Source: Actinomycetota bacterium (GTDB taxonomy: Bacteria > Actinomycetota > UBA4738). Taken from it: 64,000 nt of DNA. Made by a program: the position numbers and the translations under genes. The notes below the pieces were generated by a model. The model saw nothing but the letters and a program-made list of their open reading frames with translations, made no database searches and was not told where the DNA came from. Positions 8,649 through 56,418 of this stretch are shown piece by piece; position 1 is the stretch's first letter; each line of letters starts with the position of its first letter. The DNA lies in NCBI GenBank assembly GCA_050692195.1, contig JBOGVA010000093.1, positions 5,459 to 69,458 on the forward strand. The letters run 5' to 3'.

Positions 8649-8669
8649 TCGGCAGATTGGAGGATCGGT

Positions 8670-33749: not shown

Positions 33750-34454
33750 ATGATCGTGCTCGGGATCGAGACCTCCACTCCCCAGACCACGATCGCCCTG
33801 GGGAGCGAACAGGGGATCATCGCGGCCACGCTCATCTCCAGTGGCAAGCCCAACCACGAGGTGGTCCTCCCCAACATCGCGTACCTGTTGAAGTGGTCGG
33901 ACATCCCGATCTCGGCGCTCGGAGGCGTCGCCGTTGGCCTGGGCCCCGGCCTGTTCACGGGCATGCGGGTGGGCATCGCCACGGCGAAGACGCTCGCCCA
34001 GGTGCTGTCCGTGCCGATCACCGGCCTCGCCTCCCTCGATGTGGTGGCCTTCTCGGTCCGATACACCCCGGCGCTCATCTGCGCCGCCATCGACGCCAAG
34101 CGCAAAGAGCTCTTCTACGCGTTCTACCGCCCGGTGCCGGGAGGAGTGACCCGGCAGACCGAGTTCGAGGTGGGCTCCCCGGATCGGCTCACGGCAGACC
34201 TGGAGGCCACGGCGGAGGATATCCTGCTGGTCGGGAACGGCGCGCTCGTGTACCGTCGGCAACTGGAGAAAGCGGGCAACCACGTTCAGTTCGCCTCCGC
34301 CGCCCATGCCTTTCCTGCGGCGACGGCGCTTGTCGAACTGGCGATCCCCCGCTTCCAGCGTGAGGAGTTCGAACGGCCTTACGACCTGAGGCCGTACTAC
34401 GTCAGGAAGGCGGATGCGCAGATCGCCTGGGATAACCGTCGACGAGCCGGTTGA
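33750..34454 (+). CDS. tsaB: tRNA t6A37 biosynthesis protein TsaB
   Basis: MIVLGIETSTPQTTIAL...GVAVGLGPGLFTGMRVGIATAK... Confidence 0.9.
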   Translation: MIVLGIETSTPQTTIALGSEQGIIAATLISSGKPNHEVVLPNIAYLLKWSDIPISALGGVAVGLGPGLFTGMRVGIATAKTLAQVLSVPITGLASLDVVAFSVRYTPALICAAIDAKRKELFYAFYRPVPGGVTRQTEFEVGSPDRLTADLEATAEDILLVGNGALVYRRQLEKAGNHVQFASAAHAFPAATALVELAIPRFQREEFERPYDLRPYYVRKADAQIAWDNRRRAG

Positions 34455-34965
34455 GCTCGAGATCACCCGGATGCGCCGGCGCCATCTGAAGGGCGTGATG
34501 GCGATCGAGCGCCTCGTCTACCCGAGGCCGTGGAGCCCGAACCTGTTCCTCTCGGAGATGAGCGAGCTCCGAAACCGGACCTACCTGGTGGCCCGGATCG
34601 GCCGGGACGTGGTCGGCTACGGCGGCATCATGTGCTACGGCGAGGAGGCCCACGTCACCACGATCGCCGTGGACCCGAACCACCAGCGCCGGAAGATCGG
34701 CACTCGCCTGCTGTACGACCTGGTGTTGGAAGGCATCCGCCTGGGGGCGAGCGCCGTCTCCCTGGAGGTCAGGGTGTCGAACTGGGGCGCGCAGGAGCTG
34801 TACCGGCTGTTCGGGTTTCGCCCGGTGGGCACCCGCAAGAACTACTACCAGGAGACCGGGGAAGACGCGCTGATCATGTGGGCGGAGGGCGTGCGCACAC
34901 CGGCGTACCGCGGTCAGCTCGAGCGGATCATCAGCCAGACCCCGGACGGGGTCCGTCCGCAGTAG
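34414..34965 (+). CDS. rimI: Ribosomal-protein-alanine N-acetyltransferase (GNAT)
   Basis: ...AIERLVYPRPWSPNLF...VTTIAVDPNHQRRKIGTRLL...LEVRVSNWGAQELYRLFGF... The start is uncertain: ATG 34414 overlaps tsaB by 41 nt, and ATG 34471 is the alternative. Confidence 0.85.
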   Translation: MRRSPGITVDEPVELEITRMRRRHLKGVMAIERLVYPRPWSPNLFLSEMSELRNRTYLVARIGRDVVGYGGIMCYGEEAHVTTIAVDPNHQRRKIGTRLLYDLVLEGIRLGASAVSLEVRVSNWGAQELYRLFGFRPVGTRKNYYQETGEDALIMWAEGVRTPAYRGQLERIISQTPDGVRPQ

Positions 34966-34979
34966 CCCCGGACGCCGGC

Positions 34980-35981
34980 GTGAAGGTCCTCGGCATCGAG
35001 ACATCATGCGACGAGACGGCCGTGGCCGTGGTGGAGGACGGGCGGAAGATCCTGGCAAACCTGATCTCCAGCCAGGCCCATCTGCATCAGCGGTTCGGTG
35101 GGGTCGTCCCGGAGGTGGCCGCCCGGGCCCATCTCGAGAACATCAACCCGCTCACCGAGCTTGCCCTGAAGGAGGCGGGCGTCTCCCTCAGGGACATCGA
35201 GGGGGTGGCCGTGACCGTGGGGCCGGGCCTGGTCGGGGCGCTGCTGGTGGGGATCGCGTCGGCCAAGGCGGTGGCTCTGGCCCTGGACCTGCCGTTCGTG
35301 GGGATCAACCACCTCGAGGGGCACATCCTCGCCAACATCCTGGACCATGGGCCGATCGAGGAGCCCTTCGTCTCCCTCGTCGTGTCCGGGGGGCACACCA
35401 TGCTGGTGTACTCGCCCGAACCCCTGCGCTACGAGCTGATGGGCCAGACCCTCGACGACGCGGCGGGAGAGGCCTTCGACAAGATCGCCCGGTTCATCGG
35501 GCTCGGGTTCCCCGGAGGCCCGGCCCTCGACCGGCTGGCGCAGAAGGGGAACCCGAACGCGGTGAGGTTCCCCCGGGCGGCGACCGAGCGCGGTTACGAC
35601 TTCTCGCTGTCGGGCCTGAAGACGGCCGTGGTCCGCCACGTGAAAGCCGAGCGGGCCAGGGGGCACCGCACCTCCCCGGAGGACCTGGCGGCGTCGTTCC
35701 AGGAGGCCGTCGTCGACGTGCAGGTGGATAAGACGATCGCCGCGGCCCAGGAGAAAGGCGTGCGCAAGATCGTCCTGGGCGGGGGCGTGGTGGCGAATTC
35801 GCGCCTCCGGGAGCTGATGCTGGAGCGGGCCAGCCGGCATGGGCTGGAGCTGCTGATCCCTCCGCCGGAGCTGTGCACCGACAACGCTGCCATGATCGCG
35901 TGCGCCGGCCACTACCGGCTCCTCCGGGGGGAGCGCACGGAGCTCGAAGTCGGCGCGTCGCCAAGCCTTCCCCTGGGATGA
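34980..35981 (+). CDS. tsaD: tRNA N6-adenosine threonylcarbamoyltransferase
   Basis: (V)KVLGIETSCDETAVAVVEDG...GINHLEGHIL...VSGGHT...; GTG 34980 lies inside track ORF 34530..35981. Confidence 0.94.
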   Translation: MKVLGIETSCDETAVAVVEDGRKILANLISSQAHLHQRFGGVVPEVAARAHLENINPLTELALKEAGVSLRDIEGVAVTVGPGLVGALLVGIASAKAVALALDLPFVGINHLEGHILANILDHGPIEEPFVSLVVSGGHTMLVYSPEPLRYELMGQTLDDAAGEAFDKIARFIGLGFPGGPALDRLAQKGNPNAVRFPRAATERGYDFSLSGLKTAVVRHVKAERARGHRTSPEDLAASFQEAVVDVQVDKTIAAAQEKGVRKIVLGGGVVANSRLRELMLERASRHGLELLIPPPELCTDNAAMIACAGHYRLLRGERTELEVGASPSLPLG

Positions 35982-35999
35982 CATGAGCGGCGGGCCCAC

Positions 36000-36938
36000 G
36001 TGACCACGCTGCTGGTGACCGGCGGCGCCGGGTTCATCGGGTCCCACCTGTGCGACCGCCTTCTGGCGGAGGGCCACCGGGTGGTGGCGATCGACGACCT
36101 CTCCTCGGGCCATCTTTCGAACATCGCCGAGGCTCGCGGGTACGGGCGGGCGTTCACCTTCTACAACCTGGACGTCAGGGCCGAGGGCCTGGGTGACCTC
36201 ATCCGGCGCCACCGCCCCGAAGCCATCCTCCACCTGGCGGCCCTGCGGCGGCCCGACGCGCGGCTGGAACCCCTCGTCGAGGCGCGGGTGGGGCTGATGG
36301 GCCTGCTGGCCGTGCTGGAGGGGGCCGTGAAGGCGGGAGTGCGCAAGGTGGTGTTCGCCTCGTCGGCCGCTGCGTACGGGGAGGTCCGGAAGCTTCCCAT
36401 CAAGGAGACGGCCTTGGTCGGAGCGAGGCCCCCGAGCCCTGGTGCCATCTCGAAGAGGGTGGCCGAGGACTACCTCCGCTTCTACCGTGGATCCAGGGGC
36501 CTGGACTTCACCTCGCTCGTCCTAGGCAGCGTGTACGGCCCGCGTCAGGTCCCCACCGAAGACTCCGGTGTCGTCGCCGTCTTCGCCGGGAAAATGGTGG
36601 CCGGCCTCCGGCCGGGGATCTTCGGCGAGGGGAACCAAAGCCGGGACTTCCTGTTCATCGACGACGCCGTCCACGCGCTGGCCCTGGCCATCGAACGGGG
36701 GTCGGACAAGACCATCAACGTCGGTACGGGCGTCGAGACCAGCGTGAACGCCCTGTACCGGATGCTGGCGGACATCACGGGCTTCAAGGGCGAGCCGCTG
36801 TACGGCGCGGGTCAGCCCGGCGACGTCGGCCGGGTCTGCCTGGACAACGAGCTGGCCGAGCGGGAGCTCGCGTGGAAACCATGGACCCATCTGGAGGACG
36901 GGCTCAGGGAGACCGTGGCTTACCTTCGCGGGCCCTAG
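36000..36938 (+). CDS. NAD-dependent epimerase/dehydratase (GalE-like, extended SDR)
   Basis: LVTGGAGFIGSHLCDRLL (Rossmann motif) and ...YGEVRKLP... The sugar specificity cannot be determined. Confidence 0.8.
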   Translation: MTTLLVTGGAGFIGSHLCDRLLAEGHRVVAIDDLSSGHLSNIAEARGYGRAFTFYNLDVRAEGLGDLIRRHRPEAILHLAALRRPDARLEPLVEARVGLMGLLAVLEGAVKAGVRKVVFASSAAAYGEVRKLPIKETALVGARPPSPGAISKRVAEDYLRFYRGSRGLDFTSLVLGSVYGPRQVPTEDSGVVAVFAGKMVAGLRPGIFGEGNQSRDFLFIDDAVHALALAIERGSDKTINVGTGVETSVNALYRMLADITGFKGEPLYGAGQPGDVGRVCLDNELAERELAWKPWTHLEDGLRETVAYLRGP

Positions 36939-36940
36939 AT

Positions 36941-37777
36941 ATGCCGGGCCGCACCTCGCACACCGACGAGGTGGAGGCGTGGCGAGCACGCAGGCTGGCC
37001 CGCCTCACGGCGCCCGACGGCTGGCTCACGCTGGTCGGGCTGGAGTGGCTACAAGAGGGGGCCAACCCAATAGGGTCCGATCCTTCGAACCTCGTGGGGC
37101 TCCCGGGGGGAAAGGCCCCGCCCCAGCTCGGGTCGATCGAAGTCTCGGAAGGCAAGGCGACCATCGAGGTCCGCCCCGGCTCGGGGGTCACGCACGAGGG
37201 AAGGCCGATAACGCGGATGGGACTGCGGGACGATACCGACGGCGATCCAACGGTCCTGCGGCTCGGCACGCTCAGCTTCCATGTGATCAACCGCGAGGGA
37301 GCGCTGGCGGTGCGCATCAAGGACCGCCACAGTCCCATCCGCACCGGGTTCCGGGGCATCGACCACTACCCCGTAGACCCGCGGTGGAGGATCGAAGCCC
37401 GCTTCGACGCCTACGACCCGCCGAAGGAGACGCTGGTGCCCGACGTGCTTGGTCGGGGGCAGACCTACCGGCTGCCAGGCGCCGTCGTCTTCGAGGTCGA
37501 GGGCATGACGCACCGGCTCGAGACCTTCCTGGAGGCCGGGGAGAGAGACCTGTTCCTGGTGTTCGGCGACGAGACGAACGGAGATGAGACCTACGGGGGC
37601 GGCCGCTACCTCTATGCGGCGCCACCGGACGAACGCGGCATCGTGGTGGTCGACTTCAACATGGCCTACAACCCGCCCTGCGTGTTCACGCCATACGCGA
37701 CCTGTGCCCTCCCGCTGCCGGAGAATCGGCTCCCGATCCGGATCGAAGCCGGCGAGAAGCGGTATCGGCAGAGGTAA
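36941..37777 (+). CDS. DUF1684 domain protein
   Basis: ...WRARRLARLTAPDGWLTLVGLEWL...FNMAYNPPCVFTPYATCALPLPENRLPIRIEAGEK..., the pattern I remember for DUF1684. Confidence 0.75.
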   Translation: MPGRTSHTDEVEAWRARRLARLTAPDGWLTLVGLEWLQEGANPIGSDPSNLVGLPGGKAPPQLGSIEVSEGKATIEVRPGSGVTHEGRPITRMGLRDDTDGDPTVLRLGTLSFHVINREGALAVRIKDRHSPIRTGFRGIDHYPVDPRWRIEARFDAYDPPKETLVPDVLGRGQTYRLPGAVVFEVEGMTHRLETFLEAGERDLFLVFGDETNGDETYGGGRYLYAAPPDERGIVVVDFNMAYNPPCVFTPYATCALPLPENRLPIRIEAGEKRYRQR

Positions 37778-37942
37778 CGACAGAGATGGCGCTCGCATCG
37801 GATGTCACGGTATTCATGTTGCCGCCCCATTCGCTCACCGTGTACCTTCCAGGTCTCGAAACAGGACCAAAGCTCTGCTCGGCTTCGGTTGCCTGCCCCC
37901 CGTGCTCGGCGCTCGACCGATCAGAAGGAAGGAGCGTCGATC

Positions 37943-40900
37943 TTGCGCTGGGCCGCCCGCCGAAAGCCCGGATCCGTCCGTCGCCCGCCCTCCTCCCTGG
38001 CTTGGCTTGCTGCCCTCCTTGCCTGCGTCATGCTCGCGGCGACCCTTGCCCCTGGCCCACAGGCTCCGCCTGCCGCCCTGGCATCGACAGGGACACCCCT
38101 GCCCGAGGAGGTCCCGCCCGGGCCGCCGCCCGATCCGCTCCCCGACTCGGAGCGGGAGGTTCCCCCTCCGGCCATCCCCGAGGTCCCCGATCACGTGCCC
38201 CTGCCTTCTCTCGAGGAGCTCTTCGCTCCGGAGGACTCGGCCCGGGACCTCATCGCCACGCTGGAGGAGAATTTCGCCGAGGCCACGGAGACAATGTCCG
38301 TCTACGAGCAGGGAGGGGCCGACCACTGGCTGGCGGCCACCGTCCAGCCCCAGAACTACTTGGACGACCAGGGCAACTGGCACGACATCGACACCTCGCT
38401 CGTGCACCTCCCGGAAGGGAAGCACGAGCCGGTCGACCTGATCCCCCCCGACCTCCCCGGCTTCACCAACGCCGAGGGGATGGTGCAGGTGCTCTTCCCA
38501 GACGTCCTGTCCGCGCTCACGCCCCTGATCTTCGCTCTGCCCGAGGGGCGCCTGGACATCCTTCCCTCAGGCCTGTTCCCTGCGGTGCCGGGGGTGAGGG
38601 AGGGGGAGTCCGTCCGGTACTCCGACGCGGCCGAGAGTCTGGACCTGGTGTACACCGCCACCCCACTCGGCTACGAAGAATGGGTGGTGCTGAAGGAGCC
38701 GCCACCCGGCGACCGGGCGAGCTGGAGGATCCAAGCCACTCATCTCGCCCTCCGCTTAGAGGAGAGTGGCGAGATCTCGATCCTGGCCGGCGACGAAGTG
38801 GTAGGGGCCTTCCCACCAACCCTCGTTGGGGACTCGAGCCAGGAGCCCGAGTCCGCGGGTGCCACGACCTCGTTCCCATACGAACTCCAGGACTTGGGCG
38901 GGGGGCGGTACGAGCTCTCGGTGCTCTACGACCAGGCCTGGCTGTCTGACCCCGACCGGGTCTACCCCGTGGTGATCGACCCCGGCCCGCAGGAGCGGAC
39001 CCGCTACCCCACCGACGACACCTTCTCCTACTCGGCGAGCCCCGACACTCCGCAGGGCTCGTGGTGGAACGTCCAGGCCGGAGGGGGCGGAGGGCAGCGC
39101 ACCTTCGTCAACTTCGACACCAAGATCTACGAGAGAGCCAACCGAGTGGTCTACTTCGCCCAGCTGTCCCTGGCCCCCTATCCGGCCCAAGACTCCACCA
39201 CCGAGGGCACGGTGTACGTGAGGCGGATCACCTCCTCCTGGTCGGAGGACACCCTCACCCACAACTTCCAGCCGTCGGTGGGCACGGCCAACTGGGACTC
39301 CGCCGACGAGGGGGACGTTGACGGGGGCTGGCAGAACTTCACCGGCCTGGGAGCCCTGTACCAGAGGTTCCTGGATACCTCCGACCCGAACCACTACACG
39401 GCCCACCGCGGCGTCCGCCTGCACTCGGCCAACTCCAACTGGCACGTGTGGTGCTCTTCCAACTCCAACCTCAACTGTCCTTCCTCCGCCAAGCCCATCC
39501 TGTTCCTGACCTTCAACGATCTCCCCGCCGCCGCCGCTCCCGACCCCAACGGGCCGATCGGCACGGAGGCCGACCCCGGGATCGTCACGGTGGAGTCTCC
39601 CGAGCTGGTGATGCTCGCCATGCCCACAGACTTCAACAACGACCCAACCAGGCTCAACTTCCAGGTGTCCAAGAGCGGCACGAGCTGGGAGGCCCCAGAC
39701 CTGGTGGCCCAGTCGGGATGGATCAACTCCACGACCTGGGCGGTGCCGGCAGGAGCCCTCAAGGACGGACAGAGCTATCACTGGCGGACCCAATCCGGGG
39801 ACTGGTGCGGGGACTGGGACGACATGTGCTCCAACGAGGATGCCTCCGGCAGAATCCACCCCTGGAAGACCTCGGCGGTGCAGACCATCAAGGTGAACCT
39901 GCCCAAGTACGGCTCGGACGAGCGGTGGGCCATGTGGTCGGACCAGCTCGGCAACGGGATGTCCCTTCAGGTGAACCAGGCCAACGGCAACCTGTACCTG
40001 GACTATCCCCTGGACACCCTGCAGACCCCGGCCGGGCCCCTGGACCTGGCCCTCACCTACAACAACCAGCAGACGGCCGACATCGGCCTGGGGCCGGGAT
40101 GGAACGTCTCGGCCGGCCCGCTCTCGGACTCGCTCAAGCTCCCCACCACCCTCACCGTCGTGGCCAAGAACAAGGGAGGGGGGGTGCTGATCGCCTACGG
40201 GGACGGGGACCGGGCCCACTTCCCCAAGCTCGCCGGCACCACCTACCAGAGCGCCGGGGTGGGGACGGTGTTCAAGAACGACGGCTCGCAGGGATGGACC
40301 TACGTCACCGACGCCGGGGGGACCTTCACCTTCGACTCGGACGGGGCCCTGCTCACCGCGGCCCCCAGCTCTAACCAGTACGGGGACCCCGGGTTCTCCT
40401 ACCTGTTCGAGCCGGACCCCTCCCGCCCGGGCGTGCTCAACCTGAAGCGGGTCGCCGATCCCCTGGGCCGGGCGGTCGACTTCGCCTGGACGGGGAGTCC
40501 CACCCACCTCACCTCCATCACCACTTGGGTGCCCAAGAAGGGCGGCGGCGGCAACCAGACCTGGACCCTCGCCTACTCATCCGACCGCCTTTTCGAGGTC
40601 GCCGACCCGGTGTCCCAGACCGTGCGGTTCACCCACGAGGGAGGCCTGCTCACCGGGATCCAGGACGGGCAGCTGGTGGCGGACGCCCGGGATGAGAAGA
40701 CGGCCATCACCTACGTCCAGGAGACCCTTCCCGATGACCGGGTGATCTACCGGGCAAAGACGGTGACCGCCCCGCCCACCGTCCAGGGAGGGCAGGTGCA
40801 CCCCACGGAGTTCGTCTACGACCCGCCGCTCAACGGAGACATCGTCACCCGGACCGCGGCCATCGACCCCAGGGGCCCGACCACCCCCGAGAACGCCACC

Positions 40901-43900
40901 GACTACATGACGTGGACCGACTTCAACGACATGGGGTTGCCGATCCGGGTGGAGGGGCCGTACGACCAGCTAGGAAAGGCCCCCATCACCCGGATGTTGT
41001 GGAACTCAGAGGGCAATCTGCTGTGCTCCCGGTCTCCGGCGGCCAACCGAGACGGCGGGGTGAACGAGAAGTGCAAGGCTGGTGAGTCCGACATACCCAC
41101 CGAGCCTCTGAACACGGCATATGAGTACCAGGCCGTCGCCCCGTTCAAGCCGACGAAGGTCACCGGCCCGGCCCCCAACCCAGACGGATCGGGGGAACGG
41201 GCCGTCACCGAGTACCAGTACGACCAGGGCATCGAGGGCCTGGCCCTGTCCGAGTACACCAACGCGACCATGACGGGGCTTCCCTACAACAAGCGGATCG
41301 CGGGGCCCATCAACGGCCTGTCCCCGGACTGGGACTGGGGCCCCCACGGCCAGCCCGGCACCCTTCCGCCCGACACCACCGACTTCTCCCTCCGGTTCAC
41401 CGGGACCATCACCGCAGCCTCGACCGGCACCTACAAGTTCAGAGTGAGGGCCGGCGGGGGTTCCCGGCTGGTGGTGGGGCCGGAGGTCATCGACTGCTGG
41501 GCCGTGGGGGCCTACCCCAACTGCGGCGATACCCAGACCCTGGTGATCAAGCTCGAGGCGAACAAGTCCAAGCCGGTCAGCCTGGAGTACCGCTACGTCG
41601 ACGCGGGCTACGGGGCCAGGCTGGCATTTCAGTGGGACCCACCCGGCAGCCAGTCGTGGGAGAACGTGCCGGCCACGGCGATGGACTCCGCCCTGAGCCT
41701 GGTGACCTCGGTGGTGGATCCCAAGGGGACCACGACCCGGAGCTACCCCGACGATCCCTCCAAGTTCCGGGAGCTTCCCGCCTCCACCACCCGGGCCGGG
41801 CGCACCACCACCTATTCCTACGGCTCCGATCCCTACGGAAGGGTCCTCAGCCAGAGCGTCTCTCACCCTGACGGCCCGTTCACCACGTCCTACGTCTACA
41901 CCGATACCTCGACCACCTCCTGCCTGACGCGGGTGACCGATCCCACCGGTGCGGTCACCGACTACACCTGCGACGAGGCCGGGCAGGTTACCCAGGTCCG
42001 GGTCTCGGTGCCGGCCGTGCCCGGTACCAACCAGAACACCGACCAGGTCCGGATCACCGACACGAAGTACGACGACCTGGGCCGGCCGGAGTCGGTCACC
42101 GTGCCTCACCCGGAGGGGCAGGGGCCGTTCCCGGACACCCAGTACGACTACGACCGGGCCGGAAGGCTCACCCAGACCACCGACCCCATGGGCTTCGTCA
42201 CCACGAACGAGTACGGCCTGGACGGGCGCCTGACCAAGACCCTGCTTCCCTCCCCGGACGGCTCGAGCCCTCGCCCGGAGACCACGTACGGCTACGACGG
42301 AGAGGGGAACCGGACCTCCGTCGTCGATCCCCGGGACCACACCTGGACCACCTCCTACGACGCCCTGAACCGGTTGACCTCCACCACCACCCCGGCGGGG
42401 ACTGATGCAGATCCCGCCCCCACGTACACCACGAATACCGTCTACGACCTGCTCAACCGGACCACCACCGTCACCACCCCGGGGGGCCTGGACGCCGCGG
42501 GGAACCCCGTTTCGATCACCCAGGTCACCACCCACGACATCCTGGGGAGGGCGATCTCGGCCAAGGTAGGGGACCTGACCGCGGACACCTTCTCCTACGA
42601 TGTGGTCGGCAACCAGATCTCCCAGACCGCCGACGGCATCACCACCATCACCGAGTACAACGCCTACAACCAGCCGACCAAGGAGACCTGCCAGGGCTGC
42701 GCGGGAGGCCAGGACGCCGTCACGCACTTCGCCTACGACCAGTCCGGCCGGCTCGTCGAGGAGGTGGACGCCCGGGGCTCGGGCCCCACCGACCAAAGTC
42801 ACATGTGGAAATACGGGTACGACGGGGCAGGGAGGCTCACCTCCGCCCAGCTCCCCGCGCCCATTTCCGCCACCACCTCCATCGTCTACGACGCGGCCGG
42901 GGAGCAGGTGAAGGTGACCGATGGGGCCGGCTACGTCCGCAACTACACCTACGACGAGCGGGGACGGCTGGCCACGCTGGCCACCGCCCGGGGAACGATC
43001 GCCTACGTCCATGACGTCAATGATCGGCTCGTCCGGGTGGACCTCCCGACGAGCACCCCGCCCCTTCCTGTGGCCTCGCTCAACTACGCCTACGACAACC
43101 TGGGGCAGCGGACCCGCCGGTGGGGCCTGACCTCCGGCGGCCAGACGGTGTCCGGGGAGAACTTCAGCTTCGATTCGGCCGGCAACCTCACCCGGGCCTC
43201 CTCCGACTCGCTCACCATCCCGGCGGTGGTCATGGACTACGACTTCGCCCACCGCCCCTGGCGGGTGACCCAGGGAACCACCGTCACCACCCTCGCCTAC
43301 CAGGGGACTCAGCTTTCTTCTCGCTCGGTGGTGGCCGCGGGCTCCACGCTGACCAACAACTACCGGTACCGGACCGGCGACGGCCTGCTCGCCACGATCT
43401 CCCCCGCCTTCGGGGGGTCGAACGTCGCCTACGGCTACGACCCATACGGGCGCGCCACCAGCCGGCAGGATCCCTCGGGGCTCACCTCCGTGGTGGCCTA
43501 CGACCAGACGGGAAGGGTGAAGTCCAAGCAGGTGAACCTGCCCTCGAGCTCCCCCCTGGTGTGCTTCGAGCGGGTGTACGACCCGGTGGGCAACGTGATC
43601 CAGGAGGCCCAGAGGCCCTCGACCGCCTGCGCCACCCAGCCAGAGGGGTGGAACACCTACGCATACGACAACGCCAACCGGCTGGAGTCGGCCACCGAGG
43701 GCGGGGTCACCACCGCCTTCGGCTACGACGGCGCGGCGAACCGGACCTCCGTCCAGGTGGGTGGAGATCCCGCGGTCACCACCTCCTACGACGACGCCGG
43801 GTACCCGGACTCTGCCTCGGACGGCACGGACTATGTCACCGACGCCCTCGGTGAGCTCATGTCCATCACCAAGGGAGGATCCACCTCGTCGTTCGTCTAC

Positions 43901-45148
43901 GACGCCTGGGGCAGGACCTCGAGCGCCGCCACTCCCTCGGGGAGCTTCACCTACGTCCTGGACGCCCTTGACAGGACGATCAGCAAGGCGGCGGGCCTGA
44001 GCTCCACCAGCTTCGCCTACGTGGGGACGACCGAGGACCCCGCGGCGGTGACCTCCGGAGCCACCACCACCCACTTCGACTACACGACCGGAGGGCCTCT
44101 CGCCGAGAGGACCGGGGCCACCGTGCGCTACGACCTCTTAGACCTGCACGGGGACGTGGTGGGGCTGGCCCTCTCGGGGGGCTCCTCGGAGGGGTCGGCC
44201 ACCTTCGACGCCTGGGGGACCAAGACCGCCTCCTCCGGGGTCCAGAGCGTGCTGGGGTTCCAGGCAGACCTCACCGATACTGCCACCGGCCTGGTGGACA
44301 TGGGGACCCGCCAGTACCTGCCCTCCCTGGGCCGGTTCACCACCTCTGACGTCCTGTTCGGGGACCCCCGGAACCCCACCTCCCTGAACCAGTTCGTCTA
44401 CGCCCACGACAACCCGGTGTCCCTTTCGGATCCCGACGGGATGTGCCCCAGGGACCCCGACAACCCCGGGGCCTGCTCGGTGACCGCCCCCCGAAGAGAG
44501 GTCAAGCGGTTCCTGCGCCGGATGCGGGTCCTGACCCGCCCGGTGCACAACTTCACCACAAGGAGGCCCCTCGGGATCAACGGGCCAGAGCCCAGGCTCG
44601 ACCTCCGCCGGATCCTCCGCCCTCCCCGACCCCACACCGCCCCCAAGAAGGGAGGGGGCGGACTCGGGGGGTTCCTGAACATCCTTCAGACAGGGCTCGA
44701 CGTGGTGGGGCTGATCCCGGTGGTGGGCGAGGTGGCCGACCTGGCCAACGCCGGGATCTACCTGGCCCGAGGAGACAAGGTAGGGGCCGCGCTTTCCCTC
44801 GCTGCCATGGTTCCGATCGGCGGGCAGGCAGCGACGGCAGGAAAGTTCGCGCGGACTGCGTTGAAGGCAGCGGATGCCCTGCCCGCAGGAAAGGTGAACA
44901 GGATCTATTCGGCCCGAGTCCTAAAGAGAATGGCGGATGAGCCCGGTTCATTCCACAATTTCCCAGGGTCATTTGACGATGAAATATTCGAACGAGGAGC
45001 GCGTCAGGTCGTGCCGAACGAATTCAAGAAGGCCAAGCCACATCTAACAAACGACTCAATCCAGTATCGTCTTCCCGGCTCGATCGGGAGACGGGCGGGA
45101 ACGTTCGAGATCTTCACCCGTCCCTCGCTCTCCGGCCTAACGAAGTGA
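37943..45148 (+). CDS. Secreted RHS/YD-repeat polymorphic toxin
   Basis: TTG 37943 sits 8 nt after GGAAGGAG; the track ORF starts at 37802. Signal peptide: RRKPGSVRRPPSSLAWLAALLACVMLAATLAPG. DNRLRE-like domain at about 38970-39525 (...RRITSSWSEDTLTHNFQP...). PA14-like segment at about 41290-41650. There are dozens of YD motifs (YxYDxxGR/N). The RHS core ends ...GRFTTSDVLFGDPRNPTSLNQFVYAHDNPVSLSDPDGM (44429-44443). A PT-TG-like segment lies at about 44670-44860 (GLIPVVGEVADLANAGIYLARGDKVGAALSLAAMVPIGG). The final tip of about 95 aa is unassigned. Confidence 0.93.
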   Translation: MRWAARRKPGSVRRPPSSLAWLAALLACVMLAATLAPGPQAPPAALASTGTPLPEEVPPGPPPDPLPDSEREVPPPAIPEVPDHVPLPSLEELFAPEDSARDLIATLEENFAEATETMSVYEQGGADHWLAATVQPQNYLDDQGNWHDIDTSLVHLPEGKHEPVDLIPPDLPGFTNAEGMVQVLFPDVLSALTPLIFALPEGRLDILPSGLFPAVPGVREGESVRYSDAAESLDLVYTATPLGYEEWVVLKEPPPGDRASWRIQATHLALRLEESGEISILAGDEVVGAFPPTLVGDSSQEPESAGATTSFPYELQDLGGGRYELSVLYDQAWLSDPDRVYPVVIDPGPQERTRYPTDDTFSYSASPDTPQGSWWNVQAGGGGGQRTFVNFDTKIYERANRVVYFAQLSLAPYPAQDSTTEGTVYVRRITSSWSEDTLTHNFQPSVGTANWDSADEGDVDGGWQNFTGLGALYQRFLDTSDPNHYTAHRGVRLHSANSNWHVWCSSNSNLNCPSSAKPILFLTFNDLPAAAAPDPNGPIGTEADPGIVTVESPELVMLAMPTDFNNDPTRLNFQVSKSGTSWEAPDLVAQSGWINSTTWAVPAGALKDGQSYHWRTQSGDWCGDWDDMCSNEDASGRIHPWKTSAVQTIKVNLPKYGSDERWAMWSDQLGNGMSLQVNQANGNLYLDYPLDTLQTPAGPLDLALTYNNQQTADIGLGPGWNVSAGPLSDSLKLPTTLTVVAKNKGGGVLIAYGDGDRAHFPKLAGTTYQSAGVGTVFKNDGSQGWTYVTDAGGTFTFDSDGALLTAAPSSNQYGDPGFSYLFEPDPSRPGVLNLKRVADPLGRAVDFAWTGSPTHLTSITTWVPKKGGGGNQTWTLAYSSDRLFEVADPVSQTVRFTHEGGLLTGIQDGQLVADARDEKTAITYVQETLPDDRVIYRAKTVTAPPTVQGGQVHPTEFVYDPPLNGDIVTRTAAIDPRGPTTPENATDYMTWTDFNDMGLPIRVEGPYDQLGKAPITRMLWNSEGNLLCSRSPAANRDGGVNEKCKAGESDIPTEPLNTAYEYQAVAPFKPTKVTGPAPNPDGSGERAVTEYQYDQGIEGLALSEYTNATMTGLPYNKRIAGPINGLSPDWDWGPHGQPGTLPPDTTDFSLRFTGTITAASTGTYKFRVRAGGGSRLVVGPEVIDCWAVGAYPNCGDTQTLVIKLEANKSKPVSLEYRYVDAGYGARLAFQWDPPGSQSWENVPATAMDSALSLVTSVVDPKGTTTRSYPDDPSKFRELPASTTRAGRTTTYSYGSDPYGRVLSQSVSHPDGPFTTSYVYTDTSTTSCLTRVTDPTGAVTDYTCDEAGQVTQVRVSVPAVPGTNQNTDQVRITDTKYDDLGRPESVTVPHPEGQGPFPDTQYDYDRAGRLTQTTDPMGFVTTNEYGLDGRLTKTLLPSPDGSSPRPETTYGYDGEGNRTSVVDPRDHTWTTSYDALNRLTSTTTPAGTDADPAPTYTTNTVYDLLNRTTTVTTPGGLDAAGNPVSITQVTTHDILGRAISAKVGDLTADTFSYDVVGNQISQTADGITTITEYNAYNQPTKETCQGCAGGQDAVTHFAYDQSGRLVEEVDARGSGPTDQSHMWKYGYDGAGRLTSAQLPAPISATTSIVYDAAGEQVKVTDGAGYVRNYTYDERGRLATLATARGTIAYVHDVNDRLVRVDLPTSTPPLPVASLNYAYDNLGQRTRRWGLTSGGQTVSGENFSFDSAGNLTRASSDSLTIPAVVMDYDFAHRPWRVTQGTTVTTLAYQGTQLSSRSVVAAGSTLTNNYRYRTGDGLLATISPAFGGSNVAYGYDPYGRATSRQDPSGLTSVVAYDQTGRVKSKQVNLPSSSPLVCFERVYDPVGNVIQEAQRPSTACATQPEGWNTYAYDNANRLESATEGGVTTAFGYDGAANRTSVQVGGDPAVTTSYDDAGYPDSASDGTDYVTDALGELMSITKGGSTSSFVYDAWGRTSSAATPSGSFTYVLDALDRTISKAAGLSSTSFAYVGTTEDPAAVTSGATTTHFDYTTGGPLAERTGATVRYDLLDLHGDVVGLALSGGSSEGSATFDAWGTKTASSGVQSVLGFQADLTDTATGLVDMGTRQYLPSLGRFTTSDVLFGDPRNPTSLNQFVYAHDNPVSLSDPDGMCPRDPDNPGACSVTAPRREVKRFLRRMRVLTRPVHNFTTRRPLGINGPEPRLDLRRILRPPRPHTAPKKGGGGLGGFLNILQTGLDVVGLIPVVGEVADLANAGIYLARGDKVGAALSLAAMVPIGGQAATAGKFARTALKAADALPAGKVNRIYSARVLKRMADEPGSFHNFPGSFDDEIFERGARQVVPNEFKKAKPHLTNDSIQYRLPGSIGRRAGTFEIFTRPSLSGLTK

Positions 45149-45173
45149 TCGCGCACCGGTTCTTCAGGCCTCT

Positions 45174-45737
45174 ATGAGCGTAAACGACCATGAGTTCCCT
45201 GCTTCGTATAGCGCCCGGACTATCCATGAGGTCGTGGGGAAGCATCCGCGCTTTTACTTCCAACGTCCTGGAGAAAGAGAAGGTGCCGACATCCTCGTCG
45301 AGGTAACCACTAATGAGCACAACAAATGGATCGGTTCGTTTCGTCGTCCTCCCCGGGAGGTTGGTCGGACACACTCGGGTATCCACTCGACCCCCAATCC
45401 AGCTCGCGTGTGCGTCGTTGTGAGTGGCGACGCCTACTTAATTCCCGTCTTCGATCCTGAAAAGTATGAGCTTCTGGCGACTGGAGGGCCGGTGCTGCAC
45501 GTGCTTGCCGCGAAAGAGGAAGGTCTGCTTCTGCTCGCTAGCCCGTGGGTTGTCACTGGCGTCGGAAGCGAGGGCGTTGGGTGGCAGACAACTCGCCTGG
45601 CCGTGGATGGAATCCGTCTCGATGAGATCCGAGAGGGGTGGCTCGCGGGTGTCGCCGACCCCGAAGACGAACAGCCCATAGATTTCTTCATAGACCTGCG
45701 GACTGGGCGCCATGAGGGAGGCGCTCAACTCGGCTAG
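45174..45737 (+). CDS. Candidate cognate immunity protein (hypothetical, no family recognised)
   Basis: 187-aa ORF starting 25 nt after the RHS stop, on the same strand. It has the same lowered G+C as the toxin tip. No signal peptide or TM segment. The call rests on position only. Confidence 0.55.
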   Translation: MSVNDHEFPASYSARTIHEVVGKHPRFYFQRPGEREGADILVEVTTNEHNKWIGSFRRPPREVGRTHSGIHSTPNPARVCVVVSGDAYLIPVFDPEKYELLATGGPVLHVLAAKEEGLLLLASPWVVTGVGSEGVGWQTTRLAVDGIRLDEIREGWLAGVADPEDEQPIDFFIDLRTGRHEGGAQLG

Positions 45738-50373: not shown

Positions 50374-50658
50374 TTATCGCTTGCGCCGAGGATCTGCTAG
50401 ATGCGCCTGGGCTGAAACGAAGGACAGTAAGTGTCTTTCGACTGGCTTCCTCGCGAACGGATTGTGGGGCCACAGCAACCCGAGCGTCTCGAACAGCACC
50501 CGACTGCCATCGTCCCCGATTCGGTAGACGCGCGTCTTGATCGACACACGGCCTTTCGTCGTGACTTCCACCTCAACGCGGCCACGGAGGATGTCCCAGA
50601 TGAAGGAGAGTGCTTCGTCAATCCACTTCCGACGGTACTGCGTCTCATCGAAATGCAC
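50374..50658 (-). CDS. Hypothetical protein, possibly 5'-truncated
   Basis: 94-aa ORF with a GTG start. The same frame stays open up to 50756, 25 nt after the vapC stop, but has no ATG/GTG/TTG start there. G+C is lower than the neighbours. No family recognised. Confidence 0.4.
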   Translation of the reverse strand: MHFDETQYRRKWIDEALSFIWDILRGRVEVEVTTKGRVSIKTRVYRIGDDGSRVLFETLGLLWPHNPFARKPVERHLLSFVSAQAHLADPRRKR

Positions 50659-50780
50659 ATGGTCGTAACCGAAGCTGACAGCAATGTCCTTCTTCGCGAC
50701 CGTGATGAGCAGAGAGTGCTCGCCTATCCTCTCGACCTCAGGCTCGCGGGCCTTCCCTCATCAGCGGCAGAACGGGCTCG

Positions 50781-51218
50781 TCAGGGTTGGTCCTCGAGCG
50801 GATGGCGCCACCTCAGCCCGGGGAACCGCGCGTAGTCACGATCGGTCGTGATCCACTCGCTTCCCGACTCGATGGCGAGAGCAGCGAGGTAAGCGTCCGG
50901 GACGAGGTTCCCCTTGACGCCGGCCGCACGGCACAGCCTCATGAAGATGCTCCAGTGCCGAGGGCCGGGAAGGACGAGGACGCTGTTCGGCTGGCTCCTG
51001 AGTTCCTCCACGAAGCGGATCGCGTGTCTCATTGGGCTCGGCACGGTGAAAACGCCTGGGTGGGTGACGACGCGGAGGAATCCGCTCAGGACGAGATCGG
51101 AGGTCCCATAGGCCGCGTCCGCGTTGACGGCGCCTTCCAGCCACTCTCGGTAGAGAGCATGGTCCGTCGCATCCTCACGGTAGGCGTAGACGAGGACGTT
51201 AACGTCGACCAGGAGCAT
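50781..51218 (-). CDS. vapC: Type II toxin, PIN-domain ribonuclease VapC
   Basis: MLLVDVNVLVYAY...(D5)...SDLVLSGFLRV...DAYLAALAIESGSEWITTDRDYARF; the acidic PIN residues are in the expected order. Confidence 0.88.
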   Translation of the reverse strand: MLLVDVNVLVYAYREDATDHALYREWLEGAVNADAAYGTSDLVLSGFLRVVTHPGVFTVPSPMRHAIRFVEELRSQPNSVLVLPGPRHWSIFMRLCRAAGVKGNLVPDAYLAALAIESGSEWITTDRDYARFPGLRWRHPLEDQP

Positions 51219-51456
51219 GGTCCTCCATCAAGTCGATCAGCGAGGCGATGTCATCGAGGTCCACACCCGGTTGGAGGCCCTTTCCGGCGAATGTGGGGAG
51301 CCTGGCGGGACGCTTCCTGCCCTCGCTGGCGCCACGGCGGGCGAGGACCTCTCGCAACGCGTCCTCGATCACCTTAGTCAGCGTGCGTCCGGTGCGTGTG
51401 GCCAGCTGCTTGGCTTCAGCGAGCAGCCCATCGTCAAGGCGGATCGTCGTTCTCAT
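51199..51456 (-). CDS. vapB: Type II antitoxin (VapB-type; DUF2191-like in my recollection)
   Basis: MRTTIRLDDGLLAEAKQLATRTGRTLTKVIEDALREVL... It overlaps vapC by 20 nt. I chose ATG 51456 over the track start at 51477. Confidence 0.82.
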   Translation of the reverse strand: MRTTIRLDDGLLAEAKQLATRTGRTLTKVIEDALREVLARRGASEGRKRPARLPTFAGKGLQPGVDLDDIASLIDLMEDHAPGRR

Positions 51457-51918: not shown

Positions 51919-53556
<1,638 letters not shown>

Positions 53557-53659: not shown

Positions 53660-54427
53660 CTAGACCGTGTCCTGATCGTTCTCCAGCGTCCGGTTCTCGT
53701 ACGTGAAGAGGTCGTAGTGGGCCTCCCCGCAGGAAGTCGGGGCAAATGAACACGAGTCGTCCACCAGCGAACCGGAGATGACTCGATGGTTGGGGAAGCC
53801 TGTCATGATGAATGCCTCGGCGGTGTCCCAGGTCATCGTCATTCCGCCACCGAGCTGCGACAGGTCCCAGCGCCCGATGTTGTCCGTCATGTCGATGATG
53901 TCCCACTCGCCGGTGATGCAGCCGGTCCCGAACGGAGCGTGCCCGACGTAGCCGAACGCATTTGCGTCGAAATCCCCGTCGCCGTCCGTGTCGATCGCCA
54001 CTTGGATTCGAGGTGAGCCGCCCGAGCACGTGCGGGGCGCCATCGGGAAGAAGTACTTGAGGTTGATCTGGTGGTCGAGCGCCCCGATCTTGAAGCCGGG
54101 GGGCGTGTTCCTAAACGCGACGCCGATCCCTGCGGGATAAGCCATCGTGGTGACGACCGAGATCGTATCGTTCGTCGGATTCTGCGGATCCTGGTCGTCC
54201 AACATCGCGAACAGGAGCTCGAACTTGTGGCCAAGCCCCGGAAGCTCCTCCTGCGTACTTTCCGGATTGCTCAAGGGCCCCAGATCGGTAGTGGCCAAGA
54301 CGAGCTTTCCGATCCAATCGGGAATTTCGTTGTCCTCCGCTTGCCCAGCCGGCATCATGGCCAGCAGAATCAGCAGAGCGAGCAGCGGGATGGCGAAGCG
54401 CGGTCGGATTGTCCTTTTCGTCTTCAT
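53660..54427 (-). CDS. Secreted hypothetical protein with a DxDxDG-type acidic loop
   Basis: ATG 54427 has GAGGGGG 6 nt upstream. Signal peptide MKTKRTIRPRFAIPLLALLILLAMMPAGQA/ED. It contains IDTDGDGDFD and several Cys pairs. No family recognised. Confidence 0.7.
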   Translation of the reverse strand: MKTKRTIRPRFAIPLLALLILLAMMPAGQAEDNEIPDWIGKLVLATTDLGPLSNPESTQEELPGLGHKFELLFAMLDDQDPQNPTNDTISVVTTMAYPAGIGVAFRNTPPGFKIGALDHQINLKYFFPMAPRTCSGGSPRIQVAIDTDGDGDFDANAFGYVGHAPFGTGCITGEWDIIDMTDNIGRWDLSQLGGGMTMTWDTAEAFIMTGFPNHRVISGSLVDDSCSFAPTSCGEAHYDLFTYENRTLENDQDTV

Positions 54428-54629
54428 CGAAGACCCCCTCACTCTCCTGCTTCCTACTGAGTCGTTGGTCCGCAGCAACCCAAAGGCCTGGGTCCCCGAA
54501 CGATGCATCCACCTCCTCCCCGCGCTGGAGAGGCCGGGCTGCCGCCGGATCGCCGCATGGTAACTAGTGCTGGGTATGCAGTCAAATGAGGGGGGTTATC
54601 CCGTTGACACAACTTAGCCTAACCAGTCC

Positions 54630-55235
54630 GTGCTACGATTCGGCGCGATGGCAACGCTGTGGAAGTTGCTCCGGTGGGCTGGGGCCACAGTGAGCGGGCT
54701 CATGACGTTCTTTGGCGTGTCAGGTATCCAGGTGACCGACTGGTTCGGAAACCATCAGGAACTCTTGCGAACTCTATTAGTCTTTTTTGGGGCCATCGGG
54801 TTCCTTGCCTTTACAGTGGGTCCGAAGCTATATCGCCGCTCCGACTTCGCCACCAAGGCCGCGAGCCCGCGCTTTGAAGGTCGAAACGTTCACCCCGAAA
54901 GGAACGACTGGATACCGGGGCACGAAACCGACCCCGAGGGGGGACTCGTTCTGACCCTGGAGAAACGCGCATTCGGAGAGTTTGACCACCTCGTTTGCTT
55001 TGTCACGGATGAGAACGATGCGATGGCGGCGGAGCATGCCGCGACCGTAGGGATCGACAACCCGTTTCCCCCTCAGCAGGGTACGTCCATCGGCTGGCAC
55101 ACACTCCGTGTCCCGTACCCGGAGCGTTTCGATGATGCCTTCGATCTCCCCGTGGGTCGCCCTTGCTTCGTGTTCTGGATGGACAAGGGCTCGCCGCAAT
55201 GGGTCGCTGTCTACGAGGTCACTCGTGTTGCGTAG
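54630..55235 (+). CDS. Hypothetical 2TM membrane protein (passenger ORF inside the IS)
   Basis: Two N-terminal hydrophobic helices (WAGATVSGLMTFFGVSGI; LLVFFGAIGFLAFTVGP) and a soluble domain of about 130 aa. The start is GTG 54630 or ATG 54648. The 3' end overlaps the transposase 3' end by 17 nt. Confidence 0.6.
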   Translation: MLRFGAMATLWKLLRWAGATVSGLMTFFGVSGIQVTDWFGNHQELLRTLLVFFGAIGFLAFTVGPKLYRRSDFATKAASPRFEGRNVHPERNDWIPGHETDPEGGLVLTLEKRAFGEFDHLVCFVTDENDAMAAEHAATVGIDNPFPPQQGTSIGWHTLRVPYPERFDDAFDLPVGRPCFVFWMDKGSPQWVAVYEVTRVA

Positions 55236-56235
55236 CGGTCAATTCCTCGTAGGACAGCGCGTCGGCCTTGATGAGCGCGAGCAGCGTGTCCCGAAACAGG
55301 TAGGGGTTCTCGCGGTTATTGAACCGGAAGCTGAATTCGTCCAGGTAGGCGGGCAGGTGTTTGGCGGAAAGCTGGTGGTAGCTTCCGATGATGGACCGCT
55401 TAAGCAGAGACCACGCCGACTCCACGTTTTGAGTCCCCACGTCGCCGCGGACCCATTCCTCAGCCGAGTGATCAACCGTCTCATGGCGCGTGTTCGCGTC
55501 CGCGATCCCCTTGTAGCCCTTGTGCTGGTCCGTGTAGATCGCTGTCGCGGTCTCGGCCACAACGTCACGGAGGAAGGAATGCAGGACCCTTGTGGTGGCT
55601 TGGGTCCCGCGCTTGGTGGCGCGGAGCCTGATCCTGCCGTCTCTCTGGATCGCTCCGAGCACCATCGTCTTGTTGTCGAGAGCGCGCTGATGACCGATGC
55701 CCCGCCGCTTCCCGCCGACGTAGGTCTCGTCCGCCTCCACAATCCCGCTGAGCAATTCGACTGTGGCCTCTTTCATGGCCCATCTGATGCGGTGACACAG
55801 ATACCAAGCGGTCCCGTAGGAAACTTCGAGCGTTCGCTTCAGTTGGTTCGCGCTCATGCCCTTCTTGGACTCGCACATGAGGTAGGTGGCGAGGAACCAC
55901 TTCCACAGCGGAAGGTGGGAGTCGTGGAACACAGTCCCGGACTTGACCGAGAATTGGTAGCCGCATGACAGGCAATCGAACTGCTCACGCTTCCCGCGAA
56001 CCTCGCCCTTCTTGTGCTTCCCGTCCTTGGTGTCGCGGCGATACCTGGTCGCTGTCTGGATTCGAGAGATACGGTCGAAACCACAGTTTGGGCAACGCAC
56101 GCCGTCCGGCCAGCGGAGCCCTTCGAGGTAGGCGCGGCTCCTATCCTCATCAGCGAATTGCTCGATCAGCTTCACAAGGCTCATTGCTCCGCGATCCCTG
56201 TTCACCCTTGCGTTGTGCGCCTTGCTGGCATCCAT
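55219..56235 (-). CDS. IS1595-family transposase
   Basis: Zinc ribbon ...GVRCPNCGFDR...FDCLSCGYQFSVKSGTVF... followed by the ISXO2-like core ...IVEADETYVGGKRRG...IYTDQHKGYKGI...VESAWSLLKRSIIGSYHQLSAKHLPAYLDEFSFRFNNR. ATG 56235 has GGAGGA 9 nt upstream. Confidence 0.9.
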   Translation of the reverse strand: MDASKAHNARVNRDRGAMSLVKLIEQFADEDRSRAYLEGLRWPDGVRCPNCGFDRISRIQTATRYRRDTKDGKHKKGEVRGKREQFDCLSCGYQFSVKSGTVFHDSHLPLWKWFLATYLMCESKKGMSANQLKRTLEVSYGTAWYLCHRIRWAMKEATVELLSGIVEADETYVGGKRRGIGHQRALDNKTMVLGAIQRDGRIRLRATKRGTQATTRVLHSFLRDVVAETATAIYTDQHKGYKGIADANTRHETVDHSAEEWVRGDVGTQNVESAWSLLKRSIIGSYHQLSAKHLPAYLDEFSFRFNNRENPYLFRDTLLALIKADALSYEELTATQHE

Positions 56236-56250
56236 CGTTAGGAGTCCTCC

Positions 56251-56418
56251 ATGCCTAGAAAGCCGAAGCAGCCGCAAGAGCTGACCACGGATGAGGCCAT
56301 GCGTCGGTTGTTCGGGCGGAAGGGACTAGCCGAGGCGAAACGGGCCGCGAACCCTCCCGAGAAGGGAACCGCCAGAACGCCAAAACGCAAGGTCAAGTCC
56401 ACTAAGGGACAATTCTAA
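56251..56418 (+). CDS. Small basic ORF (55 aa) divergent from the transposase, inside the IS
   Basis: My hand translation is MPRKPKQPQELTTDEAMRRLFGRKGLAEAKRAANPPEKGTARTPKRKVKSTKGQF*. GGAG lies 6 nt upstream. It is too short for the ORF track. Coding status is unproven. Confidence 0.35.
   Translation: MPRKPKQPQELTTDEAMRRLFGRKGLAEAKRAANPPEKGTARTPKRKVKSTKGQF

Follow-up and report, generated by a model that had tools for sequence, protein, structure and literature searches.

The locus described here lies in a stretch of 64,000 nucleotides (nt) from an Actinomycetota bacterium of the GTDB lineage UBA4738 (GenBank assembly GCA_050692195.1, contig JBOGVA010000093.1, positions 5,459 to 69,458 of the forward strand), hereafter the window, and comprises a very long gene for a protein with RHS/YD repeats and, downstream of it, a short gene for a protein of 187 amino acids (aa). 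An earlier note, made from the sequence without database searches, had taken the two for a giant RHS polymorphic toxin of about 2,400 aa and a candidate immunity gene. Both open reading frames (ORFs) proved to be real: the first yields a 2,401-aa product from TTG 37943, identical to the public gene call for the contig (P0322), and the length of the second is supported by its homologues. From stop to stop, the large ORF extends over 37778-45148 of the + strand as a single reading frame, with a G+C content at third codon positions (GC3) of 0.89-0.91, about 0.9 as in the adjoining housekeeping genes. The TTG codon, with AAGGAG 8 nt upstream, is the better start call, since ATG 38030 would halve the signal-peptide-like region; the identical gene of a sister strain has been called from this internal ATG (M30; L025 4001).

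The order of parts that had been read from the letters was recovered by the profile searches and the motif map as regards the DNRLRE domain, the PA14 domain among the YD repeats, the YD/RHS shell and the core ending in DPDGM, and the translation shows an N-terminus resembling a signal peptide, a spacer rich in Pro and a linker rich in Arg and Pro (Table 1). The DNRLRE domain is overlapped by a weak CBM96 match in the profile search. The PA14 domain separates a few early YD-like repeats from the main run, with YD-like motifs at aa 795 and 992 before it and at sixteen positions between aa 1374 and 1984 after it; the run is recognized by RHS_repeat (PF05593; nine stretches, E 1.5e-49) and YD_repeat_2x (TIGR01643; E 5e-27). 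The DPDGM end of the core is the predicted site of autoproteolytic release, as judged from knowledge of the family, and this DPxG-type motif directly precedes the variable C-terminus. No WXG/LXG, PAAR, VgrG, prePAAR, SpvB or TcdB domain was found in the protein with the Pfam and NCBIfam profiles. The segment beyond the linker had been called PT-TG-like; Pfam PT-TG (PF14449) gave no match at E<=10 on the 234-aa C-terminus, but the segment is a real shared pre-toxin module, because the same module (LDVVGLIPVVGE.AD...) is found before AHH, GH-E and Endonuclease_NS_2 tips in other proteins.

Table 1. Features of the RHS gene and of the gene downstream, in window coordinates
Feature	Position	Strand	Basis
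Gene of the RHS/YD-repeat polymorphic toxin, 2,401 aa as encoded	37943..45148	+	ORF and translation; TTG start, premature TGA stop
Putative signal-peptide-like N-terminus, aa 1-47	37943..38083	+	by eye from translation: R/K-rich n-region, hydrophobic LAWLAALLACVMLAATLA, ALA/ST
Pro-rich spacer, aa 48-89	38084..38209	+	translation
DNRLRE domain, aa 358-521	39014..39505	+	NCBIfam NF033679, E 2.3e-13, 50.5 bits vs cut-off 34
DUF6531-like segment, start of RHS shell, aa 677-723	39971..40111	+	Pfam PF20148, E 6e-4, 20.5 bits, under curated cut-off 24.1
PA14 domain, aa 1143-1235	41369..41647	+	Pfam PF07691, E 1.3e-8, 35.2 bits vs cut-off 24
Main YD/RHS repeat run, about aa 1374-2087	42062..44203	+	RHS_repeat and YD_repeat_2x profiles, motif map
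RHS repeat-associated core, aa 2088-2167	44204..44443	+	TIGR03696, E 1e-17, full-length match 1-76/76, ends NPVSLSDPDGM
Arg/Pro-rich linker, then Gly run, aa 2168-2243	44444..44671	+	translation; GC3 0.80-0.93, native high
Pre-toxin module FLNILQTGLDVVGLIPVVGEVADLANAGIYLARG/DKVGAALSLAAMVPIGGQAATAGK	44672..44845	+	shared with other proteins; replacement breakpoint 44772/44773
Toxin tip, in-frame part, aa 2317-2398 (82 of ~95 residues)	44891..45136	+	family alignments, tblastn; GC3 0.47-0.73
Frameshift site	45137..45138	+	two bases (CT) in place of a complete codon, which in the family is usually one for Arg; implies 1-nt deletion
Out-of-frame remnant of last strand, NEVIAHRFFRPL and TGA	45139..45177	+	-1 frame (three-frame translation)
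Immunity gene, 187 aa, no signal peptide, intact	45174..45737	+	full-length homologues 179-197 aa; downstream of tip in 19/19 loci

Replacement of the C-terminal cassette

The sister strain is represented by a metagenome-assembled genome (MAG) of an Acidimicrobiia bacterium (GCA_050742515.1, contig JBOGIL010000021.1, locus L025), in which the gene order tsaB, rimI, tsaD, epimerase, DUF1684, RHS is the same as in the window. Positions 34030-44772 of the window are 99.93% identical to the sister, with 8 mismatches and 0 gaps over 10,743 bases, and the two RHS proteins differ as far as aa 2277 by a single residue (aa 2209). The DNA homology ends abruptly behind ...AGIYLARG, at 44772, which is in the middle of the pre-toxin module. 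Past this point the sister has another second half of the module and an unrelated tip of about 100 aa, without similarity to the window and without a Pfam match for the tip; the gene downstream, a DUF6188 member, overlaps the tip gene (both at L025 10744-11574), and this position suggests DUF6188 as an immunity family. In the window, GC3 drops from about 0.9 to 0.5-0.65 from 44772 onward and is 0.61 in the 187-aa ORF. It is shown in this way that tip, immunity gene and second half of the pre-toxin module make up one cassette, which differs from that of the sister, has a much lower GC3 than the remainder of the gene and came in by C-terminal displacement, through recombination inside the module. 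Thus, the C-terminal region varies between otherwise identical alleles and is exchanged along with the downstream gene; with the repeats and the core motif, this allele-specific replacement of tip and immunity gene places the protein among the RHS polymorphic toxins.

At its end the sister contig has an orphan fragment of an RHS core (L025 11585-11745) that shares 93% identity with window 44110-44270, and it breaks off before the tip of this fragment is visible. The fragment could carry the cassette of the window.

A frameshift within the toxin tip

The terminal module of about 95 aa, which the earlier note could not match to any toxin family known to it, does represent an unmatched toxin family, but it is not intact in the window, where only 82 of its residues are in frame. 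The ORF ends ...FEIFTRPSLSGLTK, and the -1 frame reads NEVIAHRFFRPL at the same place; the last 12 codons are shifted out of frame by a deletion of 1 nt. With tblastn, query residues 1-82 and 78-95 fall in different frames of the window. When one base is restored, the alignment of the tip with its family extends from end to end and takes in the invariant columns (E, H, R, F), and the stop codon of the tip (TGA 45175-45177) overlaps the immunity start ATG 45174 as ATGA. The tip is in one frame in all 19 other loci compared, the frameshift being unique to the window among 20 loci, and in nine of these 19 the toxin stop and the immunity start likewise overlap, as TGATG or TAATG. The distance of 25 nt between the encoded stop and the 187-aa ORF, which had been regarded as that expected for an immunity gene, is correct as encoded; it is, however, a consequence of the frameshift, because the restored stop would overlap the ATG.

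In the AlphaFold2 (AF2) model of an intact homologue, the residues lost form the last of four beta-strands, which bears the invariant E...HRF. Because this strand and the invariant residues Glu, His, Arg and Phe are missing after the deletion, the encoded toxin is probably inactive, and the immunity gene is intact. A "disarmed but immune" state is a possible outcome in this uncultured Acidimicrobiia-like lineage. Programmed -1 frameshifting was considered separately and rejected as unlikely, because the site, C TCC GGC C, is not a slippery heptamer of the form X XXY YYZ.

The missing base might alternatively be an error of assembly or consensus, with an intact tip ending ...SLSG(R/P)NEVIAHRFFRPL, translational coupling to the immunity gene and a fully active system. 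The source does look like a MAG contig, its relatives being named only as MAGs of Actinomycetota or Acidimicrobiia bacteria; the remainder of the 7.2-kb gene is open, the immunity gene is undamaged, and a single added base suffices both for the perfect family alignment and for the ATGA overlap. However, indel errors must be rare in these assemblies, because the independent sister assembly shows no gap over the 10,743 bases, which gives a rate below about 3e-4 per base and less than about an 8% chance of such an error inside the 285-nt tip; the site, GGCC/TAAC, contains no long homopolymer, and all large housekeeping ORFs checked in the window are intact. An error is consequently considered unlikely, and the frameshift is probably a genuine mutation.

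The tip family, its immunity protein and their predicted folds

Homologues of the last 164 residues of the RHS protein fall into two groups, those that share the pre-toxin module only and continue into other toxins, and those that share the terminal module, all of which end ...FEIFTRPSxSGRxExxxHRFFxP. A profile search of 5.8 billion proteins returned 168 matches to the tip, none of them named and none with a Pfam domain, and an exhaustive hidden Markov model (HMM) search of 1.84 billion cluster representatives returned 501 at E<=1e-3, each standing for a cluster at 50% identity, and 141 at E<=1e-30. In the 198 proteins with a full-length copy the tip ends at most 10 residues from the C-terminus (median 1); an RHS-core motif lies upstream in 43 of them, 33, all short, have an N-terminus that resembles a signal peptide, and the GxIPxxG pre-toxin module recurs in only one other. 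Many members of the family measure 130-350 aa, begin with a signal-peptide-like segment and end with the tip, the immunity gene following. Among 36 long carriers, RHS repeats are found in 13, and PT-HINT, SpvB/TcdB or other surface domains in others.

The carriers, which thus include RHS, HINT and SpvB-type proteins as well as small Sec-signal proteins, belong to at least six phyla (Actinomycetota, Planctomycetota, Chloroflexota, Desulfobacterales, Cloacimonadota, Candidatus Wallbacteria and Gammaproteobacteria are represented), and intact copies are present in Aeromicrobium massiliense JC14 (locus L006, about 8001-8830), Actinopolymorpha pittospori DSM 45354, Cellulomonas composti NBRC 100758 and Phytoactinopolyspora halotolerans. 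The tip of the window is 66% identical to that of a 2,338-aa RHS protein of A. pittospori, the shells of the two proteins being 23% identical. No Pfam family covers the tip in the 36 long carriers, NCBIfam gave no match to intact members, and a literature search with the motifs HNFP and HRFF, which did not extend to the "S8-BECR" families of PMC9424270, found no paper. Matches to PDB sequences, obtained with single sequences and with profiles, e.g., cullin and rotavirus VP8*, were at chance level only and were discarded. As far as found in the databases and literature searched, the pair of tip and immunity protein therefore appears to be widespread, unnamed and uncharacterized, as had been supposed, and the C-terminal region was not assigned by Pfam, NCBIfam or PDB searches to any family.

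Two further loci of the family show the tip in other surroundings. In a Nocardioidaceae MAG (L007; 624-1199, 1356-2719), an ORF for a bacterial EndoU nuclease domain stands ahead of a 270-aa ORF with a signal-peptide-like segment and the tip, and the immunity gene follows the latter, so that the locus is a small array of toxin cassettes. In a Gaiellales MAG (L005 2299-4145), a 105-aa copy of the tip that looks start-less stands before an immunity gene and further small ORFs, one of them with a weak WHH-nuclease match, an arrangement that resembles an orphan toxin/immunity array.

In the public gene call the immunity ORF has a length of only 109 aa (P0024, from an internal start), but the reading of 187 aa from ATG 45174 is preferred because the homologues, which share many invariant positions, are 179-197 aa long. 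The protein has no Pfam, NCBIfam or PDB sequence match. All 19 loci with the tip, which come from Actinomycetota, Planctomycetota, Chloroflexota, Desulfobacterales, Cloacimonadota and Gammaproteobacteria, have its homologue immediately downstream, and this homologue is more diverged than the tip (27-47% against 57-74% identity). This adjacency, the cassette swap in the sister and the C-terminal position of the tip family agree with the original assignment of an RHS polymorphic toxin with its cognate immunity gene. Two orphans that have no toxin upstream (L001 9171-9729 and L002 256-814) are its closest relatives, at 82% identity, and follow a conserved gene (175 aa in L001 and preceded there by an HTH gene); they resemble decaying orphan immunity genes, because each has a frameshift of its own at a different position.

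The AF2 model of the 187-aa protein (pLDDT 92) is all-beta, with 15 strands in roughly four four-stranded blades. The Foldseek comparison that had been proposed for both proteins left the tip without a significant match and gave for the 187-aa model partial matches to beta-propellers with a query TM-score (TMq) of 0.35-0.48, among them BamB (E 9e-6), the propeller of acylaminoacyl-peptidase and WD40 proteins. The immunity protein is accordingly modelled as beta-propeller-like, a scaffold that was absent among the immunity proteins of polymorphic toxins in the 2012 census (PMC3482391). Such a fold is a general protein-binding scaffold and would also suit a chaperone or accessory factor; alternatively, the RHS protein might be directed against eukaryotes in the manner of toxin complex (Tc) proteins. 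These alternatives are highly improbable in view of the strict downstream adjacency, the overlap of stop and start in about half of the loci with very different carriers, the faster divergence of the 187-aa protein than of the toxin, its occurrence as orphans without any toxin (L001, L002), its replacement together with the tip in the sister strain, and the lack of TcA, SpvB or TcdB parts.

As for the tip itself, helices 15-24 and 38-43 are followed in the AF2 model of the intact homologue P0011 (pLDDT 70) by strands 45-49, 64-73, 76-87 and 92-100, the last three joined by short turns, and the core of the BECR fold has been defined as an N-terminal helical segment followed by a four-stranded meander sheet (PMC3482391). 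The conserved polar residues of the tip are the His of HNFP, the Tyr in QY.LPG, RPS.SG at the turn between strands 3 and 4, and E...HRF on strand 4; the His of HRFF is invariant and that of HNFP near-invariant, with Arg, Ser and Glu on the sheet. Active sites with two His residues are common in BECR RNases (PMC9424270), and the tip contains no Cys or metal-binding motifs. In view of the modelled topology, of the His pair conserved together with Arg, Ser and Glu, and of an immunity protein that is cytoplasmic, the likeliest activity of the intact members would be that of a metal-independent RNase with a BECR-like fold, acting in the cytoplasm of the target; this is a tentative guess from the predicted topology only, held at somewhat less than even odds.

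A serious possibility, though clearly short of an even chance, is that the system works as described with a tip that is not an RNase and has another activity or a new fold, for instance as an enzyme that targets nucleotides or NAD, as a DNase or as an inhibitor without enzymatic activity. In its favor, no sequence or structure match to any RNase was obtained, the confidence of the model is moderate, the Glu of the FEI motif is replaced by Gln in several members, and the weak viral Foldseek matches are to phage polyvalent proteins, one of which is named as an ADP-ribosyltransferase (ART) protein. Nevertheless, a domain of about 95 aa with a helix-then-four-strand topology, a His pair with Arg and Ser, no Cys or metal motifs and a cytoplasmic immunity protein fits the metal-independent BECR RNases best. 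ART and NADase domains are usually larger. That the tip would be the first of a separate toxin superfamily, new in its fold or activity, distinct from the BECR RNases and neutralized by a roughly four-bladed beta-propeller-like immunity protein, is rather unlikely.

Reading of the locus and comparison with known systems

The locus is best read, with a probability of roughly 0.75, as a polymorphic toxin system of the WapA type in an uncultured, Acidimicrobiia-like actinobacterium, with a cargo toxin/immunity pair whose tip has probably been disabled by a 1-nt deletion. According to the proposed mechanism, the 2,401-aa protein would be exported by its N-terminal Sec-type signal; the DNRLRE and PA14 domains would serve as surface or target-binding domains; the YD/RHS shell would enclose the C-terminal region and, as in its family, free it by autoproteolysis at DPDGM; the cargo released would be the pre-toxin module with the tip of about 95 aa, which the cognate immunity protein, of 187 aa, cytoplasmic and beta-propeller-like, would neutralize by binding. 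The cassette would have arrived by recombination inside the pre-toxin module, and the deletion at 45137/45138 would have removed the last strand of the tip, leaving a probably inactive toxin with the immunity gene kept. The locus had been called the clearest conflict system in the window; it is a real toxin/immunity locus, but probably one with a disarmed toxin and a retained immunity gene.

Several points weigh against this reading or parts of it. The window comes from a MAG-like contig, in which a consensus or assembly indel may occur, and no near-identical copy of the tip was found for comparison, the metagenome scan having given only relatives of 51-64% identity. No LysM or similar cell-wall-anchoring domain was detected in the RHS protein with Pfam and NCBIfam. 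Export by Sec, display at the surface, autoproteolytic release and neutralization by binding are steps that we infer from related systems. The assignment of fold and activity to the tip is weak, the model having a pLDDT of only 70: the tip and its intact homologues match no Pfam BECR, Ntox or other family; in the Foldseek search against the PDB the best E was 0.5, and the highest TMq among the matches listed, 0.41, belonged to the BECR tRNase CdiA-CT of Kp342 (6cp9) at E 1.8; against the viral library BFVD the matches were to segments of phage polyvalent proteins at E>=0.09, and these as well as 6cp9 count as no more than leads.

The system is genuine but of an ordinary, well-known kind and introduces no new principle. 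Its description nonetheless adds to the catalogue of interbacterial weapons a widespread toxin/immunity pair that has no Pfam or NCBIfam model, whose immunity protein has a confidently modelled beta-propeller-like fold and of which cultured strains carry intact copies. Two strains that are 99.93% identical and differ by a cassette swap provide a clean natural example of C-terminal displacement, and the breakpoint inside the pre-toxin module supports the role of such modules as recombination handles.

The surroundings are those of a core chromosome, with ribosomal protein genes in the window. The two genes are preceded by glmM, glmS, nnr, tsaE, tsaB, rimI, tsaD, an epimerase gene and DUF1684, and on the 3' side of the 187-aa ORF there follow an ABC-2 permease and ATPase (- strand), DJ-1, GntR, an FAD oxidase, a PIN gene, groES and groEL. 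The VapC-like PIN-domain gene (50781-51227, -), between the FAD oxidase and groES, adjoins a 127-aa ORF (50374-50757, -) without a Pfam match. Farther on, an IS1595-family transposase (DDE_Tnp_IS1595 with zinc ribbon; 55219-56325, -) lies in a stretch of lower GC (54-58 kb, GC 0.60-0.64) and is adjoined by a 311-aa ORF (53660-54595, -), likewise without a Pfam match. The closest relative of the RHS protein is from an Acidimicrobiia MAG, and the clusters of the ribosomal proteins include no entries other than MAGs labelled "Actinomycetota bacterium". The GroEL of the window (51931-53556) and the 394-aa product of 4499-5683 are both singletons at 90% identity in a collection of 15 billion proteins, which indicates that the lineage is poorly sampled.

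As the earlier note had stated, no genes for type VI secretion (T6SS), type VII secretion (ESX/T7SS) or Tc toxins are nearby: none of these, nor any sortase or SecF-like gene, was found among the ORFs scanned over about 21.5-64 kb, a TcA partner was not found among the scanned ORFs, and no orphan RHS-CT cassettes occur within the window. Export by Sec would be consistent with the N-terminus and with the lack of such secretion genes in the scanned ORFs, and Sec is the default route for RHS toxins with a signal peptide (Table 1 of PMC3482391). Export by a dedicated system encoded elsewhere in the genome, e.g., ESX/T7SS, or free release instead of Sec export with surface display would be compatible with the view of 64 kb only and with the absence of a cell-wall-binding domain, sortase or SecF-like partner, unlike in Streptococcus suis WapA; it is improbable given the signal-peptide-like N-terminus, the absence of WXG/LXG, PAAR, VgrG or SpvB domains from the protein and the default use of Sec.

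With the BECR RNase toxins (barnase, colicins D and E5, RelE, EndoU, CdiA-CT of Kp342 and Ntox19/35/47/50; PMC3482391), the tip would share its size of about 95 aa and C-terminal place, the predicted helices and four strands, the His pair with Arg, Ser and Glu, and a dedicated cytoplasmic immunity protein, a likeness that is topological only, with no significant HMM, PDB-sequence or Foldseek match. The small Sec-signal toxins of Gram-positive bacteria (ABP/S8-associated; PMC13460014, PMC9424270) are resembled by many members of the tip family, whereas the window protein is an RHS carrier and the neighbor in the Nocardioidaceae locus is an EndoU-domain ORF, not a protease; BetaH domains or S8 proteases next to the tip family were not the object of a systematic search. 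The Rhs effectors of T6SS (RhsA, TseI, Tse5, Photorhabdus Rhs1) have in common with the window protein the YD cocoon, the aspartyl autoproteolysis motif and the swappable tip with its immunity gene, and also the orphan CT fragments, one of which is present in the sister strain. However, the window protein belongs neither to them, having a signal-peptide-like N-terminus and a monoderm host instead of PAAR, VgrG-binding or prePAAR domains and T6SS genes, nor to the Tc toxins.

The nearest counterpart is WapA, as known from the WapA-WapI pair of Bacillus subtilis and the WapA-CT proteins of S. suis, the latter combining a Sec signal, DNRLRE and LysM, DUF6531-Rhs1, Rhs2 and PreT-CT with an immunity gene (PMC12704120). 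The domain stack had been called unusual, but it is largely this known Gram-positive architecture, because S. suis WapA is described with the same parts and only the PA14 insert and the missing LysM set the window protein apart from it. In place of LysM or wall-binding repeats and of adjacent secF-like or srtB genes, none of which was seen in the protein or its neighbors, the window has the DNRLRE and PA14 domains, in an Acidimicrobiia-like host, with unnamed tip and immunity families and a frameshifted tip. Besides a putative Sec-type signal, it shares with WapA the DNRLRE domain, the DUF6531-like start, the YD/RHS shell, the DPxG motif of the core, the pre-toxin module with a polymorphic C-terminal toxin, the immunity gene downstream and, finally, alleles that differ between strains only at the C-terminal toxin/immunity cassette.

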